The notes under the pieces were generated by a model. The model was not told where the DNA came from. It made no database searches and saw only the letters and a program-made list of their open reading frames with translations. A DNA stretch of 64,000 nt from Candidatus Collierbacteria bacterium (GTDB taxonomy: Bacteria > Patescibacteriota > Microgenomatia > UBA1400 > JACPES01): assembly GCA_016183365.1 (NCBI GenBank), contig JACPES010000003.1, positions 169,467-233,466 on the forward strand, read 5' to 3'. Position numbers and translations under genes: made by a program. Shown in pieces: positions 3,196-51,843 of this stretch; positions within the stretch are counted from its first letter, which is position 1; every line of letters starts with the position of its first letter.

Positions 3196-3597
3196 ATGAA
3201 CAATAAACAGGAAACAAGAAACAGGAATCAAGAAACAATGATAGTCAGGGCGGAATCGTCCGTTATCAGACAATCGGTCAGAAAAATGCAGTTGGTGACC
3301 AGAGCCATATCCGGAATGACCCCGGCTACGGCAGTAGAAGTTTTACAGTTTATGGATAAAAAAGCGGCTGAACCGATTGGAAAAACTATCCAACAAGCTA
3401 TAGCCAACGCGACTAATAATTTGAAAATCGCCGAAAGTTCTTTTGGCCGATTGTTGGTTGAACTGCAAGAGGGGCCGACGATGAAACGGTGGCGGATGGG
3501 AAGCCGGGGCCGGACCAAGCCGATTTTGAAAAGGACGGGGAAAATAGTGGTAAAGCTGTTTGTAAAAATCAATGAACAAAAAACAAAAAACAAATAA
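3196..3597 (+). CDS. rplV: 50S ribosomal protein L22. The alternative start at 3238 removes an A/C-repeat-encoded N-terminal extension.
   Basis: MIVRAESSVIRQSVRKMQLVTRAISGM... is L22-like. The N- and C-terminal extensions are encoded by the ACAAAGAACAAA repeat. Confidence 0.85.
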   Translation: MNNKQETRNRNQETMIVRAESSVIRQSVRKMQLVTRAISGMTPATAVEVLQFMDKKAAEPIGKTIQQAIANATNNLKIAESSFGRLLVELQEGPTMKRWRMGSRGRTKPILKRTGKIVVKLFVKINEQKTKNK

Positions 3598-3653
3598 CAA
3601 TAAACAAAGAACAAAGAAACAAAAACGCTCTTTGCTTTTTGATTTTTAATTTT

Positions 3654-4930: not shown

Positions 4931-5196
4931 AAATACTTACCGGAGTGGTTATCAGCCCCAAAATGGAAAAATCAGCCACAGTCAGGGTGGATAGAATGTG
5001 GCGTCACCCAATTTATAAGAAGATGATGAAAAGATCTAAAAAGTTTTTGGTCCACGCGGAAAGTCCGGTTAAAGCCGGTGAAATTGTCAAAATAGCCGAG
5101 ATTAAGCCTATGAGTAAGTTAAAGAGGTGGAGGATAATAGAAGAAGCAAAAAACAAAGAACAAAAAACAAAGAACAAAAAACAAGAGAGAAAATGA
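4927..5196 (+). CDS. rpsQ: 30S ribosomal protein S17, with a Lys-rich C-terminal tail encoded by the A/C repeat.
   Basis: LTGVVISPKMEKSATVRVDRMWRHPIYKK is S17-like. The tail EAKNKEQKTKNKKQERK comes from the repeat. Confidence 0.85.
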   Translation: MKILTGVVISPKMEKSATVRVDRMWRHPIYKKMMKRSKKFLVHAESPVKAGEIVKIAEIKPMSKLKRWRIIEEAKNKEQKTKNKKQERK

Positions 5197-5567
5197 TTCA
5201 ATTAAGGACAGTTTTAACCGTAGCAGATAATACCGGAGCCAGAAAATTGCGGGTTTATATGATTCATGGAGGATCTAAGCGCAAATTTGGCAATATTGGA
5301 GATTTTGTGGGAGCCTCGGTTATCGAGGCGATTCCGGAATCGCAATTTCCGGCCGGAACTAAAGTTAAGGCAGTCATAGTCAGAACCAGACATCCATTGC
5401 GCCGCCGAGATGGATCAAGAATTCGTTTTGACGATAACGCCGGGATTATTTTGGAAAGTTCCGAAAGCAAAAATCCGGCCGGGAGCAGGGTTTTCGGGCC
5501 CATTGCCCGGGAAGTGAAAGAGGCGGGATTCACAAAAATCGCGTCCCTGGCGGAAGAGGTGGTATAG
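5193..5567 (+). CDS. rplN: 50S ribosomal protein L14
   Basis: MIQLRTVLTVADNTGARKLRVYMIHGG. Its ATGA start overlaps the S17 stop. Confidence 0.9.
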   Translation: MIQLRTVLTVADNTGARKLRVYMIHGGSKRKFGNIGDFVGASVIEAIPESQFPAGTKVKAVIVRTRHPLRRRDGSRIRFDDNAGIILESSESKNPAGSRVFGPIAREVKEAGFTKIASLAEEVV

Positions 5568-5611
5568 GAGTAGAGAGTAAGGAGTAAGGAGTAGGGAGTA
5601 GGGAGTAGGGA
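5568..5611. repeat. Six tandem heptamers GAGTARG (an array of Shine-Dalgarno-like AGGAG motifs) between rplN and rplX.
   Basis: The sequence gagtagagagtaaggagtaaggagtagggagtagggagtagggag is read directly from the window. Confidence 0.8.
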
Positions 5612-5621
5612 GCAAAAAATT

Positions 5622-9156: not shown

Positions 9157-9420
9157 ATGTCGGTTTTAATTCATGAGCCGGTGGCAGTGGTAGCGGTATT
9201 TAAGAATGGCCGGGTGAAGCCCGTAGTGTTTCGATGGAAGGACAAGAAAATTTCCATCGAGAGCGTTTCTTTTATGTGGCAAACAACGCAGGGAAAAGAA
9301 CATTTTCTTCACTTCACTGTTATTGCTTCTCAAACATTATACGAATTGCTGTTTAATATTTCATCAATGGTATGGAATCTGGAACGGGTTGAGACAAACA
9401 TCGGAATTTCTACTATATAA
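9157..9420 (+). CDS. Hypothetical 87 aa protein.
   Basis: An ORF preceded by TTGACA-N18-TAAAAAT. I recognise no family. Its position between rplO and dinB is unexpected. Confidence 0.35.
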   Translation: MSVLIHEPVAVVAVFKNGRVKPVVFRWKDKKISIESVSFMWQTTQGKEHFLHFTVIASQTLYELLFNISSMVWNLERVETNIGISTI

Positions 9421-9450
9421 AATGTTATATAACATTTTATATAAAGTAGC
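9408..9450. repeat. Near-perfect palindrome of about 40 bp centred on AAAATGTTATATAACATTTT (copy 1).
   Basis: The sequence ctactatataaaatgttatataacattttatataaagtag is read directly. A second copy lies at 48601-48640. Confidence 0.8.
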
Positions 9451-9480: not shown

Positions 9481-9516
9481 ATTGTCTTAACTAATAACCA
9501 ATAACCAACAACCAAT
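9481..9516. repeat. A/C-rich AACCAATAAC repeat (copy 1, intergenic).
   Basis: The sequence ctaataaccaataaccaacaaccaataactt is read directly. A related copy sits in-frame in mltG at 57950-57995. Confidence 0.7.
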
Positions 9517-9521
9517 AACTT

Positions 9522-12552: not shown

Positions 12553-13773
12553 ATGGATTTACCAAATATATTTATTACCGCGTTTCAGTCTCTGGCCCGG
12601 AATAAAACTCGGACACTTTTGACTATTTTGGGAATTGTTATTGGCGTCGGGTCGGTGATTATGCTGATGTCCATCGGAGATGGATTGAAAAAGTATGTTT
12701 CAGGCCAGTTTGAAGCTCTCGGGTCAAACATTATTATAGTATTTCCGGTTAATTTGGTTGACGAACAAGGTAGGCCGGCTGCTTTTCGGGGAGGAGGCCC
12801 GCCGGTTGGGGGGAAAACTTTTTCTGAAAAAGACGTCCGCGACATTAAAAAACTCCATCCGGGCATTGTCAAGGTTAATCCTCAAGTCCAAAAATTAATC
12901 AGGGCCAAATCTGTCAGTAAGCAAAAACAATTGAATGTAGTTGGCGCTACCTACGAGTATAAAGAGATCAGATCAATAACCATGGCCGGCGGCCGGTTTT
13001 ACAATGAATCAGAGGTTAACCGGTCTAAAAAAGTGGCGGTTCTGGGGCCGACGGCGGCCCGGGATTTATTTCCGGACGGAAATTCTTTGGGAAAATCCAT
13101 ATATATTTCGTCTGTCGCGTTTGAAATTATCGGCATAACCGATCCCCGCGGCGGCGGCGGGGGCTTAGGCGGCAATGATTTGGATGACCAAATTTATGTT
13201 CCGATTTCCAGTCTGCAAAAACTGGTGGATTCGCCCGGAGTGGATTTTATTGTTGTTAAAGCATCCGGCGCCGACCAAATAGACGGGGTAATCGCGGCTA
13301 TCAAAACTCATCTTTTAAAAAGCCGAAAAGCCGATACTTTCAGCGTGGTTGATCAACGGCAATTGTTGGGGACGGTGCAATCGGTAATCGGGACTTTGAC
13401 TATCGGACTTTCCGGAATCGCGACAATTAGTTTGGTGGTTGGCGGGATCGGAGTTATGAATATGATGTTGGTGACAGTGACCGAACGGACGCGGGAGATT
13501 GGTTTGCGCAAAGCCCTGGGCGCTACCCCCGGAGTGATAATGCTGCAATTTTTGATTGAAGCGATTTTGCTGTCTTTAACCGGTGGTTTAACCGGAATTA
13601 TCATCGGCGCCGGCGGAAGTTTAATCGTTAACCGGTTTTTCCCGACCCAAGTTTCAGTTTTGGCAGTGCTGCTGGCGTTCGGGGTTTCGACTTTAGTCGG
13701 AGTAGTTTTTGGAATTCTGCCGGCCCGCAAAGCGGCCAAATTATCCCCTATCGCAGCGCTCCGATATGAGTAG
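12553..13773 (+). CDS. ABC transporter permease with a MacB periplasmic domain and an FtsX-like four-helix permease domain.
   Basis: N-terminal TM, large periplasmic domain, and a C-terminal FtsX-like domain with a TERTREIGLRKALGA motif. Confidence 0.8.
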   Translation: MDLPNIFITAFQSLARNKTRTLLTILGIVIGVGSVIMLMSIGDGLKKYVSGQFEALGSNIIIVFPVNLVDEQGRPAAFRGGGPPVGGKTFSEKDVRDIKKLHPGIVKVNPQVQKLIRAKSVSKQKQLNVVGATYEYKEIRSITMAGGRFYNESEVNRSKKVAVLGPTAARDLFPDGNSLGKSIYISSVAFEIIGITDPRGGGGGLGGNDLDDQIYVPISSLQKLVDSPGVDFIVVKASGADQIDGVIAAIKTHLLKSRKADTFSVVDQRQLLGTVQSVIGTLTIGLSGIATISLVVGGIGVMNMMLVTVTERTREIGLRKALGATPGVIMLQFLIEAILLSLTGGLTGIIIGAGGSLIVNRFFPTQVSVLAVLLAFGVSTLVGVVFGILPARKAAKLSPIAALRYE

Positions 13774-13810
13774 CTGGGATATGAAACGAAGGTGGTTTTA
13801 AAAACAAGTC

Positions 13811-13838
13811 TTGACAAGCCGGTTATTGTGTGTACAAT
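13811..13838 (+). promoter_or_regulatory. Strong sigma70-type promoter: TTGACA, 16 nt spacer, then TACAAT.
   Basis: The sequence ttgacaagccggttattgtgtgtacaat lies just upstream of the antitoxin ATG at 13846. Confidence 0.6.
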
Positions 13839-13845
13839 TGGACAC

Positions 13846-14151
13846 ATGAATATTCAAACTCAATTGGAGGACTACCATAATTTGACTACATGGCTTTATT
13901 CTTGGGGAAAGGAGCCACAGAAATCGCGTCGGGTTCAATTGAAAATGCCGGCGGCAATAGTGGAGATGTTGGATAAAAAGTTCCCTAAAATTAATAGGAG
14001 CAGGCTGTTGACTCAAGCTGTTGTAGAATTGTTAATCAGGAAAACCAGGGCGGACAGACCGGATTTGGAACAATGGCTGGCAGCGGAGCAAGATGACTTA
14101 GACGAAATGTGGAGTTATCTTAAATTCCGTGATAAAAAACAGAAAATATAA
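13846..14151 (+). CDS. Ribbon-helix-helix (CopG-like) antitoxin.
   Basis: VQLKMPAAIVEMLDKKFPKINRSRLLTQAVVELL shows a beta-alpha-alpha RHH pattern. It overlaps the downstream toxin gene. Confidence 0.55.
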   Translation: MNIQTQLEDYHNLTTWLYSWGKEPQKSRRVQLKMPAAIVEMLDKKFPKINRSRLLTQAVVELLIRKTRADRPDLEQWLAAEQDDLDEMWSYLKFRDKKQKI

Positions 14152-14476
14152 GATTGGGGAGATTTATTTGGTTCGTTTCCATCCTGCCGCTGGCGCGGAA
14201 TTAAAACGTTATCGGCCTGCGGCAATTATTTCCGGGAAAATAAATGGTGCCGATCCCCGATTTTCATTGATTGCTCCGTTAACTACAGGCGGAATGATTA
14301 ACAGGAACTACGAAATGATGATAAAGCGTCGAAATGATTTAGCTAAAGATTCGACGCTATTGGTTTGGTATTTAAGAACGGTTGATATCAGGAGAATTGG
14401 GGAGAGAATTGCTGAACTAAATCAGTCTGAAGTTAAAGTTATGAAACGGAAGCTTAAAAATTTGCTGGATTTCTAG
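14129..14476 (+). CDS. MazF/PemK-family mRNA interferase toxin.
   Basis: GEIYLVRFHPAAGAELKRYRPAAIIS ... LIAPLTTG matches the MazF GDIxxVDFDPxxGxExxxxRPAVVxS ... CxPxTT signature. Confidence 0.75.
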   Translation: MIKNRKYKIGEIYLVRFHPAAGAELKRYRPAAIISGKINGADPRFSLIAPLTTGGMINRNYEMMIKRRNDLAKDSTLLVWYLRTVDIRRIGERIAELNQSEVKVMKRKLKNLLDF

Positions 14477-14488
14477 AGATAAAAATTT

Positions 14489-16392
14489 TCAACCGGTGAG
14501 GAGGTGAGACAGGATTTCGGAAGGGAGACGGACGCGGCCGAATTGAGCCAGGCGTTTTTTGCCCTTTTTTTGTTTTTTTAATAATTTATCTTTCCGGGTT
14601 TGGTCTCCGCCGTAAAGCTTGGCGGTAACGTCTTTTCTCAACGCCGGTTTGGTTTCGCGGGCAATTATCTCTGCACCAATAGCGGCTTGGATGGGGACGG
14701 CGAATTGTTGGGAAGGCATCAACTCCTTTAGTTTTTCCACCATTTGTTTGCCGATTTGGGTGGTTTTGGACTTAACGATTATCCGGGACAAAGATTCGGC
14801 CGGTTCGTGGTTTAATAATATTGTCAGTTTGACTGCTTCAACCGGTTCAAGACCAATAATATCGTAGTCCATGGTGGCAAATCCCCGGGAAGCCGATTTA
14901 ACTTCATCAAACATGCCGCTGACCAATTCAGCCAGAGGAATAATGTAGGTCAGTTGGGCCCGGTTGCCGACAAAATTGGTATTGAGATATTTTCCGCGCC
15001 GGCTTTCGGCGATTTGCATGAGAGACCCTAGATATTCCTGAGGCGTAAAAATCATAGTCTTGGTCATTGGTTCTTTTACCTGGACAATCCTTGACGGATC
15101 GGGAAAATCGTTGGCGTTTTTAATAGTTAATGTCTGGCCGTCGGTGGTTTGGGCTGAATATTCGACGGTCGGCAAGGTCATAATAGTCGGCAAGCCAAAT
15201 TCTTTTTCCAGTCTTTCTCTAGTGATCTCAAGATGAAACAAGCCCAGGAAACCGCATTGCAGGCCGGGGCCTAAAACTTGAGAGAATATTTGTCGTGACG
15301 ATAGGCTGGCATCGGATAGTTTCAATTTTTCAAATCCTTCCAAAAACCTTTTAAAATCTTCCCCTTCGTCCGGATATAAATCAGCATATAAACTGGGTTT
15401 GGGCTCTCGATAGCCCGACAGTGGAACTAAAGAATTGAGAATAGGAAAGACGGTAATGGTGTCCCCGGCTTTGACCTTGCGGATATCTTTAAGGCCGGTA
15501 GCGATATAACCGACTTGGCCTGTCTCTAATCTATCTATTTGAGTTCTCTTTGGCGTAAAAATACCGATTTCTTTAGGCAGAAAATTCTGACGGAAGGCCA
15601 TTAGCGATAGTTTCTCACTGGCTGCAAGTTCCCCGTCGACAATTCTGACGAAGGCTATAACCCCCAAATGTTGGTCGTAAGTCGAATTAAAAATTAATCC
15701 CCGCAGGGGTAAATTTTGATTCCCTTTTGGGGCAGGTAATTCGGTTATTATCCGTTGGATTAAGTTTTCTACGCCCTGGCCGGTTTTAGCGGAAATCAGC
15801 GAGACCTCATTTTCTTTAAATCCAAACGCATTGTTTAGTTCAGTTAGTACTTCCGGGACATTGGCATTGGAAAGGTCGATTTTATTAATTACCGGAATTA
15901 AATACAGTTTTTGGGCCAGTGCCCGTTGAGCGTGAGCCAAAGTTTGGGCCTGAATTCCTTGAGTGGCATCTATTAATAGTATGGCGCCTTCGCAAGCCGC
16001 CAGACTCCTGTCGACTTCGTAGGCAAAATCGACGTGGCCGGGAGTGTCGATGAGATTCAGAATAAAATATGACGATAGATGGTTGAAGGTAGAAGATGGT
16101 GGTTGAGGATGGAGGATAGATGGTAGACGGTTTTCTATTTTCGATTTTCTATCTTCTACCACTATATTCAATCTTCTATCTTCTATCGTCTTGTTTTTCC
16201 ATTTCATCGTCACCGGCGCCAAACTGATAGTCACTCCGCGTTCGCGTTCGATGGGATTGGAGTCCAAAATTTGTTCCCGCATCTGCCTTTTTTCGACCGT
16301 GCCGGTAAATTCCATCAGCCTGTCTGATAATGTCGACTTTCCGTGGTCAACATGAGCAATTATTGCGAAATTTCTGATATTTATTGAAGTCA
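14489..16392 (-). CDS. lepA: Elongation factor 4 (LepA), with an in-frame insertion of about 35 aa in the G domain. The start is probably a GTG near 16392.
   Basis: NFAIIAHVDHGKSTLSDRL, DTPGHVDFAYEV, and the C-terminal LepA domain. The ORF track extends upstream to 16501. Confidence 0.85.
16081..16200. repeat. Inverted-repeat-bounded low-complexity element of about 120 bp, in-frame inside lepA.
   Basis: The termini are gacgatagatgg... and ...ttctatcttctatcgtc, with internal gatagaagat/atcttctatc repeats. It encodes IVVEDRKSKIENRLPSILHPQPPSSTFNHLSSY, which is absent from canonical LepA. Confidence 0.6.
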
Positions 16393-16416
16393 CGAAGATA
16401 TTATATGTTACGCGAG

Positions 16417-16680
16417 TTATTTTCGGTATAACTGACTGTGGGTGCCGAGGACTTCGAAATAAGCAATTCCTGACGAAATTTCTCGAAAAATTGCCCGCCA
16501 ATCACCGCTGATATTAATACTTCTGCAGCCAAAATATTTTCCGATAAGAGCATGATTATTAAGAAGAGGGTGGAATTGATTTCTCAAAAATTGTTCTAGA
16601 CGCTTGTTGAATGCCGATTTTATTTTAGAAGGCGCTTTAGCATATTGTTTACCGAAAGTCCGGCTGAACTTTGCTTTCAT
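16417..16680 (-). CDS. RelE/ParE (YafQ-like) toxin.
   Basis: MKAKFSRTFGKQYAKAPSKIKSAFNKRLEQFLRNQFHPLLNNHALIGKYFGCRSINISGDWRAIF matches the RelE family pattern. Confidence 0.65.
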   Translation of the reverse strand: MKAKFSRTFGKQYAKAPSKIKSAFNKRLEQFLRNQFHPLLNNHALIGKYFGCRSINISGDWRAIFREISSGIAYFEVLGTHSQLYRK

Positions 16681-16685
16681 AATTA

Positions 16686-16970
16686 TTATTCCGTCTGTTT
16701 TTCCAGCCAAGCAATAGCATCAGCGGCGTTACTGAAAGCCGGAGATGTTCGTCCGGTTTTTCTATCGATCTCGGATTCTTTTAAAGCCTTGATCAAATAT
16801 TCGCTAGGTTCTTCCGGGACCGCGCTGAAAAATACAGATTTAGTCCGCGCTAATTGTTTGAGGTAAGCATTAACTAAAGAGCTTAAGCTAAAGCCCAAAT
16901 CAGCCGCAATTTTTTGGACCTGAGCTTTAAGGTCGGGATCGGTCTTGATAGTCATAACAGCGGTATTCAT
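16686..16970 (-). CDS. RelB/DinJ-family antitoxin.
   Basis: MTIKTDPDLKAQVQKIAADLGFSLSSLVNAYLKQLARTKSV is DinJ-like. It lies directly upstream of the RelE toxin. Confidence 0.65.
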   Translation of the reverse strand: MNTAVMTIKTDPDLKAQVQKIAADLGFSLSSLVNAYLKQLARTKSVFFSAVPEEPSEYLIKALKESEIDRKTGRTSPAFSNAADAIAWLEKQTE

Positions 16971-17045: not shown

Positions 17046-17105
17046 TTATGATTTCAATTATTTTCAAGCAAAGCTTGAACCTTCTCTGCAGGAAAATAAT
17101 TGAAG
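17046..17105. repeat. Hairpin repeat with 13 bp arms TTCAATTATTTTC / GAAAATAATTGAA around a 28 nt loop (copy 1).
   Basis: Read directly. Related copies lie at 17466-17495 (arms only) and 48665-48719 (similar loop). Confidence 0.75.
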
Positions 17106-17194
17106 TAGATATAATGTTTGACATAAATTGAGCGTGCCAGATTAATTGATGACTTACAGAATATTCTCAAGACTTAACATTTCTTATTAAGGTG

Positions 17195-17218: not shown

Positions 17219-17274
17219 TCTTATTCATTTTCTTTTGACGTTAATTTAACTTCAATAAAATATAAAGCCGCGAA

Positions 17275-17335
17275 ATTTCTGATATTTGTTGAAGTCACGA
17301 AGATATTATATGTTACGCGATTTATTTTCTAAACT
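17275..17335. repeat. Duplicate of about 58 bp of the lepA promoter plus its first codons.
   Basis: gcgaaatttctgatatttgttgaagtcacgaagatattatatgttacgcgatttattttc matches 16364-16420 at all but two positions. Confidence 0.8.
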
Positions 17336-17465
17336 CTGGACAATTTAATGAGTCCTAAAATATCCAGATGATCTGATTCGCGTTGCCACATAAGCATTGT
17401 TTTTGTTCCTATAAAGATTATTGTCTCACATAAAAGATTAAAAGATCTATACTATTGCGAATTAA

Positions 17466-17495
17466 TTACTTCAATTATTTAAATAATTGAAGTGG
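17466..17495. repeat. Hairpin repeat, arms-only copy: cttcaattatttaaataattgaag.
   Basis: Read directly. Confidence 0.7.
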
Positions 17496-17622: not shown

Positions 17623-18042
17623 TTAATTCGAAAACACCACTAACTGCAATAATTTATCGAAACTAACAGAAAACTGCTCGAAGATATCGAGCCGACCCAA
17701 TAATAGTATCGAATCTTGAGAATGGACGAAATAACTTCTGACTTCAATCTCACGATTGTCGATCATTAACTTTATTTTTCCGGGCGAAGCCAGCAGGGCT
17801 TGTTGGCCAATTCCATAGAGTTTGGTTTTGATATTAGATTCATATTTAATTCCCAGTCTATTAGCTAAAGAAATCGGCAACATGGTGACATCGGCGCCAC
17901 TGTCGATTAAAAACCATAAGTGTTGCCAGCCCCACGAGGCTCTAACTGGAATTAATGCCAGGGGATTAAATATCCGACCTAAATCAATCTGTTTGTATTG
18001 ATAGGGAAAAGTAGGCACTGACTTGGCCATATTTTTCGACAA
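17623..18042 (-). CDS. Retropepsin-like (clan AA) aspartic protease, single domain.
   Basis: LIDSGADVTML shows the D-S/T-G-A active-site motif; the 139 aa size fits a homodimeric retropepsin fold. Confidence 0.7.
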   Translation of the reverse strand: MSKNMAKSVPTFPYQYKQIDLGRIFNPLALIPVRASWGWQHLWFLIDSGADVTMLPISLANRLGIKYESNIKTKLYGIGQQALLASPGKIKLMIDNREIEVRSYFVHSQDSILLLGRLDIFEQFSVSFDKLLQLVVFSN

Positions 18043-18205
18043 ATCCGATAGCTGTTTTTTGAGGCGGAACGGCTTTTCTTTTCAAATCTTTAAACAGCAA
18101 ATCAATGTTTTTAGCCTGAGAATAAACTTTGCGTCCGGTCTTGCTGGTTGCCACCCACTTGCCGCCGAATTTTTTCTGAAGCTTAAGATAAATGTCTGTT
18201 TTCAT
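17984..18205 (-). CDS. Small 74 aa protein with a GKWVA motif (DUF5678-like). It overlaps the protease gene.
   Basis: MKTDIYLKLQKKFGGKWVATSKTGRKVY... The ORF track's upstream extension (to 18280) lacks coding character. Confidence 0.4.
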   Translation of the reverse strand: MKTDIYLKLQKKFGGKWVATSKTGRKVYSQAKNIDLLFKDLKRKAVPPQKTAIGFVEKYGQVSAYFSLSIQTD

Positions 18206-18303
18206 GATTTGAGTATAAGCTTTGGCTTTAACGAAAGTCAATGGTTGGCAACTAACTCGTTTGGGAAAGGCACTTCGCATAGATTATAAACAGGAGCCCT
18301 GGC

Positions 18304-48600: not shown

Positions 48601-48640
48601 AAATATAAAATGTTATATAACATTTTATATCAAGAGTTAA
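48601..48640. repeat. Palindrome AAAATGTTATATAACATTTTATAT (copy 2), directly upstream of the DUF1653 gene.
   Basis: A 24 nt segment identical to the copy at 9419-9446. Confidence 0.8.
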
Positions 48641-48664: not shown

Positions 48665-48719
48665 AACTTCAATTATTTTCTTGCGGAGCAGGATCAGGCT
48701 CTGCCTGAAAATAATTGAA
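48665..48719. repeat. Hairpin repeat TTCAATTATTTTC ... GAAAATAATTGAA (copy 3).
   Basis: Same arms as the copy at 17046-17105, and the loops share ...tctgc.gg. Confidence 0.75.
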
Positions 48720-50457: not shown

Positions 50458-51843
50458 ATGACATTTCAGTTGCCGAGTGAAGTAATCAACATTCTGCAGG
50501 GGTTAAAAAAATCAGGATTTGATGGTTTTGTGGTGGGTGGAGCGGTGCGGGATTTATTGACTAAGCGTCAAGTTGATGATTGGGATTTTACCACCAACGC
50601 AACTCCTGTCGAGATTCAAAAAGTGTTTCCCGGAAGTTTTTATGACAATCAATTCGGGACAGTGGGAATCCCCCGGGATGGCAATATTTTTGAAATCACG
50701 ACTTTCAGGACGGAACATGGATATTCTGACAAAAGACGGCCGGATAAGGTGGAGTGGGGAAAAAGTTTGGAAGAAGATTTAAGCCGGCGGGATTTTACGA
50801 TTAACGCCATGGCGCTACAAACAAAAAACAAGAAACAAAGAACAAAGAACGATGAATTAGAGGTAGAAATAATTGATCCATTTGGGGGACAAAAAGATTT
50901 GGAGAAGAAAATTATTAAGGCGGTAGGGGATCCAAACCAAAGATTCGGCGAGGACGCTTTGAGAATGATGCGGGCTATTCGCTTGGGAGCCGAATTGGGA
51001 TTTGGAATTGAAGGTCAAACTTTAGAAGCCATTAAGAAAAATAAAGATTTAATCAGGGAGATATCTGGGGAAAGAATTAGGGATGAATTTTTAAAGATTG
51101 TCGGCAGTCCTTATCCGGCCGATGGAGTTAAACTGTTATATAGCACCGGGTTGTTAGAAATTATCTTACCGGAATTGGTTAAGGGGGCAGGAGTGCCTCA
51201 AGGCGGCCATCATATTAATGACGTTTTTACCCACTGTATCGAAAGTTTAAGATTTTGTCCCAGTCAAGACGCGTGGGTGAGGTTGGCGACTTTGCTTCAT
51301 GATGTTGGTAAACCGGACACGATGATGATGCGTGATGGTAAACCGACATTTTATAACCATGAAGTGGTTGGAGCCAGGTTAGTTAAAGTAATTTCCGATA
51401 GGCTACGTTTACCGCGGGAAAAAAAAGACTTCTTATGGAAAATGGTTCGTTGGCATATGTTCGCTTACAACCCGGAAATGACAGATTCCGCCATTCGCCG
51501 GTTTATGCGCCGGGTGGGAAAAGACGATATTCCGAAGATGATCGAACTGCGGGTTGGCGACAGAAAAGGCGGCGGCAGCAGGGAAACCAGTTGGAGGCTG
51601 GAAGAATTGAAACGCCGGATTGCCGGGTTAATGAACGATCCGTTAACCGTGGCCGATCTTAAGATTGACGGATTTGATGTAATGAAAACACTTAATATTA
51701 AACCCGGGCCGGTAATCGGCAAAGTCTTAAATTTTCTATTCGAGGAAGTTTTGGAAGATCCTAACAAAAATACCTCGGAATATTTACTGTCTAGAATTGC
51801 GGTGGCGGTACAATCTAAAGATAACCAGCAAAGCCCCGATTGA
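50458..51843 (+). CDS. cca: CCA-adding tRNA nucleotidyltransferase with an HD domain.
   Basis: GGAVRDLL, an HD motif (LLHDVGK). It contains the in-frame A/C repeat QTKNKKQRTKND. Confidence 0.8.
   Translation: MTFQLPSEVINILQGLKKSGFDGFVVGGAVRDLLTKRQVDDWDFTTNATPVEIQKVFPGSFYDNQFGTVGIPRDGNIFEITTFRTEHGYSDKRRPDKVEWGKSLEEDLSRRDFTINAMALQTKNKKQRTKNDELEVEIIDPFGGQKDLEKKIIKAVGDPNQRFGEDALRMMRAIRLGAELGFGIEGQTLEAIKKNKDLIREISGERIRDEFLKIVGSPYPADGVKLLYSTGLLEIILPELVKGAGVPQGGHHINDVFTHCIESLRFCPSQDAWVRLATLLHDVGKPDTMMMRDGKPTFYNHEVVGARLVKVISDRLRLPREKKDFLWKMVRWHMFAYNPEMTDSAIRRFMRRVGKDDIPKMIELRVGDRKGGGSRETSWRLEELKRRIAGLMNDPLTVADLKIDGFDVMKTLNIKPGPVIGKVLNFLFEEVLEDPNKNTSEYLLSRIAVAVQSKDNQQSPD

Follow-up and report, generated by a model that had tools for sequence, protein, structure and literature searches.

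A palindromic element of heptanucleotide repeats, in frame within the elongation factor 4 gene of a Candidatus Collierbacteria bacterium: a probable member of a mobile family

The lepA gene, which encodes elongation factor 4 (EF4, also called LepA), is located on the minus strand of a 64-kb stretch of DNA from a Candidatus Collierbacteria bacterium, a member of the Microgenomates within the candidate phyla radiation (CPR). This stretch, called the window below, represents about 11% of a 588-kb contig. In the codons for the turn between strands β2 and β3 of the G domain the gene carries a palindromic block of 122 nt, which is probably a copy of a small non-autonomous DNA element, belonging to a family that passes from gene to gene and from one CPR lineage to another. 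The element would have landed in the codons of the turn and, since 120 nt is a multiple of three and the frame in use is the only stop-free one, we infer that it is translated as a 40-residue excursion, a charged half followed by a half rich in Pro and Ser, which would leave the GTPase fold intact. It may have spread through transposition in trans, by being copied during template switches, or by recombination across the conserved codons that flank it. The same loop would have been hit repeatedly in other CPR lineages by unrelated hairpins of the same architecture, as one of the few sites where such an insertion can be survived. Coordinates are collected in Table 1; the loci and proteins used for comparison are designated by our L and P numbers.

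The gene is contained in a minus-strand open reading frame (ORF, 14489-16501), in which the start was set by orthologue alignment. The deduced protein is 100% identical to the NCBI entry for elongation factor 4 of Candidatus Collierbacteria bacterium and is matched by solved LepA structures with E = 2e-72. The original prediction placed an in-frame insertion in the G domain just before LIDTPGH, and this was confirmed both by alignment with diverse EF4/LepA proteins and by an AlphaFold2 model (mean predicted local distance difference test score, pLDDT, of 85), the insert falling between β2 (residues 61-66) and β3 (residues 109-114). In the alignment with the LepA of Aquifex (PDB 2ywe), 41 residues of the query (69-109) stand in place of 4. 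The stretch from GVTI to DTPGH (GVTISLAPVTM...LNLIDTPGH) comprises 68 residues in the window and 30 in the closest insert-free orthologue, an excess of 38, and between 26 and 31 in every non-CPR LepA that was fetched. The peptide that had been quoted is present, with a size of 40 codons rather than the roughly 35 extra residues first estimated, and the interval first proposed, 16081-16200, was displaced by about 10 nt, the inserted codons being located at 16070-16189 and the element at 16071-16192. Peptides spanning its junctions would include SKIENR... and ...FNHLSSYFILNLIDTPGHVDFAYEVDR. The 40 codons contain no stop and the LepA ORF stays full-length, as expected for an in-frame insertion; the columns of β3 and of the DTPGH motif, directly downstream, are invariant across an alignment of 62 LepA sequences. 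In the otherwise confident model, the insert is the low-confidence part: the means of 10-residue blocks lie between 39 and 60 over residues 71-110, residues 87-104 fall below 50, and residues 70-86 are modelled as a weak helix. Such a loop fits the tolerated surface excursion that had been suggested. An assembly artefact is ruled out as the source of the insert, which is found in independent assemblies from NCBI, ENA, JGI and Logan. Inteins and self-splicing introns are ruled out as well, 40 repeat-encoded codons being too few for either and no intron being matched in Rfam.

The whole block constitutes a single imperfect hairpin, with two arms of 64 nt (72% Watson-Crick pairs) and a 6-nt loop. 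It has the size and the palindromy of Rickettsia palindromic elements (RPEs) and of miniature transposable elements with inverted repeats (MITEs), and no other palindrome of the window comes near it in size. The inverted ends quoted in the original prediction are indeed present (gacgatagatgg at 16071-16082 and ttctatcttctatcgtc at 16174-16190), but the picture of a low-complexity block bounded by inverted repeats has to be amended: palindromy spans the entire block, and its apparent low complexity is a 7-nt periodicity. Tandem Repeats Finder (TRF) detects at 16133-16191 of the plus strand 8.6 copies of TTCTATC with a period of 7 and 73% matches, and the period-7 match fraction of the insert, 0.61, has a z-score of 9.2 relative to shuffled sequences. 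This heptamer construction, the extension of the hairpin over the whole element and the CPR-wide hotspot described below had been overlooked. Folded as RNA, the plus strand, which is antisense to lepA, reaches -62.5 kcal/mol (z = -9.2) and the lepA sense strand -32.8 kcal/mol (z = -3.9); none of the shuffled sequences folded as well on either strand. The 57 pairs in register in the 120-nt core comprise 40 Watson-Crick pairs, 9 A.C pairs on the sense strand (G.T on the antisense strand), no G.T pair on the sense strand, and 8 transversion mismatches. Translated in six frames, the element is open only in the frame in use, the other five containing 1 to 5 stop codons; such a selection filter explains why it has the same orientation and the same frame in both of its host genes, lepA and the transketolase gene described below. 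We call the family to which it belongs family A. The consensus hairpin over five family-A copies has 50 predicted pairs, 4 of them with compensatory double changes, and the stem is kept in all copies; an nhmmer profile of the family matches the window at 16069-16193. Further compensatory stem changes distinguish the inserts of L085 and L091.

Table 1. Features of the lepA gene and its palindromic element (positions in the window)
Feature	Position	Strand	Description and basis
Palindromic mini-element, family A, 122 nt	16071..16192	-	Sense strand reads AAGACGATAGAAG...CCATCTATCGTC; ends set by the blastn match to L196 656-777
Hairpin arm, T/C-rich on plus strand (degenerate TTCTATC array)	16134..16197	.	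5' arm in lepA sense; charged half IEDRRLNIVVEDRKSKIEN
Hairpin arm, G/A-rich on plus strand	16064..16127	.	3' arm in lepA sense; Pro/Ser-rich half LPSILHPQPPSSTFNHLSS
Hairpin apical loop, 6 nt	16128..16133	.	Inverted-repeat search and folding
lepA (elongation factor 4) coding sequence	14489..16393	-	634 aa, GTG start at 16393; ORF and orthologue alignment
40 inserted codons, T69-S108 (TIEDRRLNIVVEDRKSKIENRLPSILHPQPPSSTFNHLSS)	16070..16189	-	Sole open frame of six; residue coordinates
β2 codons (residues 61-66), directly upstream of insert	16196..16213	-	AlphaFold2 secondary structure; coordinates from residue numbers
β3 (YFILNL, 16052-16069) and G3 motif DTPGH (16034-16048), directly downstream of insert	16034..16069	-	

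The existence of a mobile family is suggested first of all by a copy in a second, unrelated gene. When the 45-aa insert peptide was compared with 1.84 billion representative proteins in a full HMMER scan, one genuine match was returned (P0122, E = 4e-5, 60% identity over 42 residues); three other matches were rejected, being repeat proteins with cumulative low-complexity similarity. P0122 is a Transketolase_C domain protein encoded by an ordinary gene for the C-terminal subunit of transketolase (DNA in L196). In blastn, positions 656-777 of L196 match 16192-16071 of the window over 122 ungapped nt with 79.5% identity (E = 1e-24), and this element is the only similarity between L196 and the entire window. 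The termini (GACG...CGTCTT on the plus strand of the window), the length, the orientation and the frame are alike in the two copies, so that unrelated loci share the same ends, as they do for RPE- or MITE-like elements. The G+C content of L196 is 35%, and that of the window 38-49% in 2-kb bins, mostly 40-47%. In L196, transketolase sequence is found on both sides of the element in one contiguous stretch, and the corresponding segment is absent from 15 of 15 Patescibacteria-type orthologues of P0122. Another homologue of family A was recognized in the lepA gene of L089, where it aligns over about 120 nt of both sequences with a score of z = 22; the backbone of that gene is 50% identical to the window lepA in amino acids, 55% in nucleotides and 33% at third positions.

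The insert and its host gene have also diverged at different rates. Among the three lineages which share the insert, its nucleotide identity is 93-94%, versus 83% for the rest of lepA, and its synonymous divergence (dS) is 0.08-0.20, versus 0.83-1.09 elsewhere in the gene, which makes it 5-10 times lower. Non-synonymous divergence (dN) is similar in the insert (0.02-0.07) and in the rest of lepA, giving dN/dS ratios of 0.1-0.9 and 0.05-0.08, respectively, and the trough of divergence does not extend beyond the insert. Two further families of inserts behave alike, with a dS of 0.46 versus 0.99 (L085/L091) and of 0.15 versus 0.66 (L092/L093). The lepA backbones of eight Collierbacteria are roughly equidistant from one another, the flanks of the window gene are closest to those of L085 (0.91-0.92), which carries a different insert, and the alleles at two variable sites of lepA sort incongruently. 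By these comparisons, the history of the insert is decoupled from that of its host gene.

The site itself varies among relatives. We aligned eight Collierbacteria-type lepA genes, 83-91% identical to the window in protein sequence, and considered one further relative (P0008/L094). The loop is empty in one of the eight (L086, with a 30-aa loop); the insert of the window is common to three lineages (the window, L081/L082 and L083); unrelated inserts occupy the loop in L084, L085/L091 and L001, and yet another is found in P0008/L094, which amounts to at least five unrelated inserts in this set. Since the close orthologues, at 83-87% identity, are either empty or filled with unrelated hairpin inserts, the segment is not an ancestral part of LepA; nor do the orthologues all carry a comparable insert encoded by non-palindromic DNA, the finding that the original prediction had named as incompatible with a palindromic element. 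More widely, the loop from ERERG to DTPGH measures 30 to 80 residues among the 120 best LepA homologues, with many unrelated sequences. Of the 21 distinct loop inserts examined at the DNA level, 17 have a period-7 z-score of at least 3 and 15 fold significantly on at least one strand, and all 21 keep the reading frame without stop codons, which argues that the inserts are translated and not removed. The LepA loop is thus a recurrent insertion hotspot across the CPR, used by several unrelated hairpin families. One of these is a second widespread family, with peptides like KSEIRNKSQIQNSNNQNGFEFRDSNFEFADS, found in L092/L093, L004, L013, L040 and L044; it is shared by LepA proteins only 43-49% identical, including one from a Sungiibacteriota genome, and its repeat units resemble an inverted copy of the native CTGAATC (L-N-L) codons. 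lepA has in addition a second hypervariable site, located in domain II after GDTxT (15419-15451 in the window, residues 315-325), where the window has a short allele. Relatives (L083, L084, L091, L085 and L001) present there heptamer-array alleles of the CGTTAAT or AATTCAG type, and L089 a hairpin insert with a 9-nt period.

Several observations weigh against the interpretation of the block as a mobile element. The only copy outside lepA comes from a scaffold with a gap of 12 N located 175 nt upstream of the element. The insert-free orthologues closest to P0122 (P0125-P0136) have 5-9 extra residues at the same loop (NHQSLIT, DHPSSI, HNLSSI and so on), which resemble the 3' end of the element (NHLSS/NHLPS), and more distant orthologues have only 3-4 residues there; these NHxSxI residues may be what is left of the element, or host sequence that it has captured. 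No second copy was found in the window, whether with the terminal 19-mer allowing 3 mismatches, by a whole-window repeat search or with the nhmmer profile of family A; the transketolase copy belongs to a different organism. Run over the window and all CPR loci, the same profile recovered the known copies only, plus a weak match (E = 0.16) to a different hairpin element of L081. An exact-match scan of metagenomes with the central 22-mer returned two contigs, both carrying lepA of the L081 type, and a scan of viral contigs with a 15-base core gave 101 matches of 17-22 nt, all due to chance. Multiple copies within one genome, the hallmark of MITEs and RPEs, are therefore not shown in the 64 kb. 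Judged from the filled sites themselves, neither host gene shows a direct repeat indicative of a target-site duplication (oriented as in our alignment A4, the flanks are AATAT / GTTTT in lepA and TTATA / ACCTA in transketolase). No transposase was identified in the window, in which no search aimed at transposases was made. Finally, in other families, parts of the hairpin were made in place from the host flank, so that template switching and slippage, and not transposition, contribute; such mechanisms could in principle also copy an element ectopically. Despite these points the block is probably a copy of a mobile mini-element, and the data support the view that it works like RPEs do: in-frame insertion, a conserved peptide and an intact host protein. 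The resemblance to MITEs and RPEs noted in the original prediction is strengthened by the 79.5% copy in transketolase; since multiplicity within a genome, target-site duplication and mobilizing activity are not shown, we do not classify the element as a strict member of either group.

The element is found in a genome rich in heptanucleotide repeats. The window contains 15 tandem arrays of period 7, versus 2.25 expected from dinucleotide shuffles, and among the fetched loci their density per 100 kb is 10.5 in the CPR or unclassified ones versus 0.65 in those that are clearly non-CPR, a ratio of about 16. The relative L081 cleanly lacks two 51-nt arrays of the ribosomal protein operon, those located at 5141-5190 and 5567-5617. 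The arrays of the window are thus over-represented and are gained, lost or changed in length between close relatives, as seen at these two loci and at the two lepA sites. The first of them, (AAACAAR)n, lengthens the C-terminus of S17 by 17 aa without disturbing the TGA/ATG overlap with the L14 gene; the second, (GGAGTAG)n, is located between the L14 and L24 genes and repeats the Shine-Dalgarno-like GGAG. Further arrays are found at 3199-3238, 3564-3653, 35599-35631, 50819-50850, 57946-57982 and 9488-9519. Arrays of (AAACAAR)n also occur in frame in three further genes, namely at the N terminus of L22, in a membrane protein of 692 aa and in a protein similar to CCA-adding enzymes (the latter judged from its translation only); another, at the L22/S3 junction, forms a hairpin with a TTTGNTT array. 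The (TAACCAA)n array at 9488 has an inverted counterpart at 57946, which lies in frame within the gene for an MltG-like protein (likewise judged from translation only).

A broader proposal is that the CPR harbour a large, undescribed superfamily of hairpin mini-elements defined by structure and by a 7-nt period. Such elements would spread without a dedicated transposase by template switching and slippage, copy host flanks into their stems, cross lineages via conserved codons and repeatedly colonize the rare permissive loops of proteins that otherwise do not vary: the β2-β3 turn and domain II of EF4, the C domain of transketolase and the termini of ribosomal proteins. We put this forward as a speculation that we presently doubt more than we believe; if true, it would represent a major source of lineage-specific insertions and of new disordered segments in CPR proteomes.

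Another account dispenses with a mobile element altogether: the insert would have been built in place at the lepA loop by slippage in a 7-nt register combined with intra- and inter-strand template switching. This we consider unlikely for the window, although for other inserts local mutation has left clear traces. In six loci (L092, L093, L004, L040, L044 and L001), from lineages as distant as Microgenomates and Sungiibacteriota, the 3' junction of the insert is a perfect palindrome with arms of 12-14 nt: one arm consists of the native (Y/F)-x-L-N-L codons and the other of their exact reverse complement, and the arms follow the synonymous choices of each lineage (CTG, TTG or CTT for Leu; ACG or ATT at x). 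Such palindromes are the signature of template switching, a process for which the making of perfect stems and of compensatory changes over several bases is documented (PMC8794818). The heptamer repeated in L002 and L086 is identical to the native codons for Y-Q-L, and the 7-mers common to the inserts and their own flanks, summed over 19 loci, exceed those of shuffled sequences (z = 4.0). The heptamer arrays moreover characterize genome and clade alike and come and go between relatives, as the two 51-nt arrays absent from L081 illustrate; and heptanucleotide repeats are reported to be the commonest long simple repeats of prokaryotes, for which slippage has been proposed (PMC4679880, PMC4692102). 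The insert of the window does not share these traces: its flank-derived 7-mers are not enriched (z = -2.0) and its best junction palindrome measures 4 nt, which lends no support to an origin from its own flanks or as a template-switch arm, an origin that holds for other families. Independent local generation, furthermore, cannot produce a 79.5% match over 122 ungapped nt in an unrelated gene, nor the homologue in L089, whose lepA is so divergent.

The low dS of the insert, together with its folding, could also be read as the mark of a selected nucleic-acid structure, be it an antisense RNA, a structure of the lepA mRNA with a regulatory or pausing role, or a DNA site, with the peptide as a by-product. 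We regard this explanation as very unlikely. The reduction of dS is found in two other families as well (by a factor of 2-4.5), compensatory changes preserve the stem, unpaired positions vary up to about three times more than paired ones, and the antisense strand folds better, not only in the window but in 15 of the 21 distinct loop inserts. The close relatives, on the other side, are empty or carry unrelated sequences at this place, and the same element resides in a transketolase gene. No promoter-like site exists within 500 nt of the hairpin, where a scan for promoters and terminators gave nothing meaningful. No family of Rfam 15 is matched at its gathering score, the best match reaching 26 bits of the 73 needed, with a plant miRNA precursor model; the sub-threshold matches are to generic, miRNA-type hairpins only. 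A functional antisense RNA is thus not supported, since no promoter-like site and no Rfam family were found and the sister lineages have unrelated inserts or none. A purely RNA- or DNA-level element, besides, has no need of being in frame and stop-free, as every insert is.

The strand asymmetry itself was considered from two other sides. A mutation bias of the replication strand was rejected as its cause: in L089, L013, L044 and L002 lepA lies on the G-rich strand and the inserts still fold better in antisense. The asymmetry goes with the orientation of the gene rather than with the local GC skew (which reflects replication direction only crudely), and this argues against such a bias. Strand-specific selection on the antisense hairpin was found to be unsupported in the family of the window, in which recent substitutions at variable paired positions kept 4 antisense pairs and broke 4. 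We favour the simpler idea that selection acting on the mRNA or the peptide, rather than some role of the antisense strand, accounts for the excess of A.C pairs on the coding strand. Changes from T to C in the pyrimidine arm would remove stop codons on the coding strand and convert Phe, Leu and Ile codons to Pro, Ser, Thr and His codons; the A.C mismatches would in addition weaken an mRNA hairpin which would otherwise be about twice as stable and hinder translation. Least probable of all is that the insert is a lineage-specific adaptive extension of EF4, for instance for a new contact with the reduced CPR ribosome: its intact length in three lineages, a dN as low as that of the rest of LepA and the retention of lepA by CPR that lost many other GTPases of ribosome biogenesis (PMC12641178) speak for it, but they are outweighed by the higher dN/dS, by a peptide predicted with low confidence and partly disordered, by sister lineages which lack the insert or have unrelated peptides, by the occurrence of the same peptide in transketolase and by the fact that its sequence is dictated by palindromic heptamer DNA.

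Other palindromes and gene cassettes were observed in the window and its relatives. L081 contains at 13125-13228, in the spacer between genes for an ABC-transporter ATPase and a MacB/FtsX permease, a palindromic element of about 135 nt which is absent from the window (junction at 12553), forming a filled/empty pair for a different hairpin element. Small families of palindromic intergenic repeats occur in the window (9415-9442 / 48603-48630, 17053-17106 / 48666-48719, 17458-17491 / 63306-63339 and 26770-26821): a perfect AT-rich palindrome of 28 nt is present twice, hairpins of the type TTCAATTATTT...AATAATTGAA exist in at least three places, and one perfect hairpin with 25-nt arms stands isolated. 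A 60-nt direct repeat, 97% identical, covers the 5' end of lepA with its upstream region (16365-16424) and positions 17270-17329. The two repeats bracket a YafQ-toxin/RelB-antitoxin pair (cassette 16417-16970), and in L081, L085 and L086 murJ stands beside lepA and the cassette is absent, so that it has the appearance of an insertion accompanied by a long target duplication. Small accessory genes surround lepA: upstream, one for an aspartyl protease of retropepsin type (Asp_protease_2), next to a weak DUF5678 partner (17623-18280), and downstream a PemK/MazF toxin gene with a small upstream ORF (13792-14476); an Asp_protease_2 gene is likewise found near the transketolase copy in L196 (3991-4347).

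Palindromic elements inserted in frame have mostly been regarded as peculiar to Rickettsia, and the case of the CPR would make more general this route by which selfish DNA, or DNA generated by mutation, gives essential proteins new segments, here in one of the most conserved translation GTPases and with elements made of 7-nt repeats. It provides a concrete, reused insertion site, with at least six alleles among lineages 83-91% identical in LepA, where gain, loss, exchange and tolerance can be studied, and it links the excess of heptanucleotides in prokaryotes, the creation of hairpins by template switching and MITE-like mobility. Such inserts also affect marker-gene alignments and gene calling in CPR genomes. 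A literature search found no paper on a heptanucleotide-repeat excess in CPR, nor on LepA insertions in CPR. The occurrence in CPR, the construction from 7-nt repeats and the repeated colonization of one loop of a universal GTPase appear to be undescribed; the behaviour itself is known from Rickettsia.

Among known systems, RPEs offer the first comparison. They are palindromes of about 100-150 bp, found in frame in many unrelated housekeeping genes, which encode a conserved peptide and leave the host protein functional; they occur in host-cell-dependent bacteria with small genomes and are multi-copy, with 44 insertions in R. conorii (PMC10969869). The element described here resembles them by its 122-nt in-frame palindrome, by a peptide 60% identical between lepA and transketolase and by its insertion in a surface turn. 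It differs in having one copy in 64 kb, its copies being distributed across genomes and not within one; in being built of degenerate 7-nt tandem repeats, the whole element forming one hairpin; in using a site of one gene that is hit by many unrelated families across the radiation; and in having no sequence relationship to RPEs. With bacterial MITEs of the REP, BOX, ERIC or Correia type it has in common the small size, the terminal inverted repeats, the lack of transposase coding, a presence that varies from one relative to another and, occasionally, fusions in frame (PMC10969869), and it departs from them by the lack of a visible target-site duplication, by having no identified parent insertion sequence or transposase and no demonstrated multi-copy status, and by its internal simple-sequence repeat.

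The heptanucleotide repeats known from other prokaryotes (the short tandemly repeated repetitive sequences, STRR, of cyanobacteria, TAACTGA in Beggiatoaceae and GGGNATC in Xanthomonas and Nostoc) are over-represented and vary between relatives (PMC4679880, PMC4692102), as do the 15 arrays of the window, some of which are absent from a relative; their excess has been attributed to polymerase slippage by Mrazek and colleagues, as these articles summarize. They are mainly intergenic direct repeats of one unit, whereas the units described here differ by site, many arrays form long hairpins together with an inverted complement of themselves, and several are in frame in conserved genes. Template switching produces reverse-complement copies of neighbouring sequence and multi-base compensatory changes, creating or repairing stems (PMC8794818, PMC7202029), which fits the junction palindromes that copy the codons of each lineage and the double changes in stems; it is a mechanism, not a family of elements, and alone leaves a 122-nt sequence in two unrelated genes unexplained. 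The tandem repeats of Borgs are, like the present ones, recent, lineage-specific and fast-evolving and add new disordered segments to proteins (PMC9879509), but they are direct repeats of an archaeal extrachromosomal element, neither palindromic nor shared by unrelated genes. Taken against these systems, the block in lepA is best described as a heptamer-built variant of the in-frame palindromic mini-elements, present in a CPR bacterium at a recurrent hotspot of EF4.

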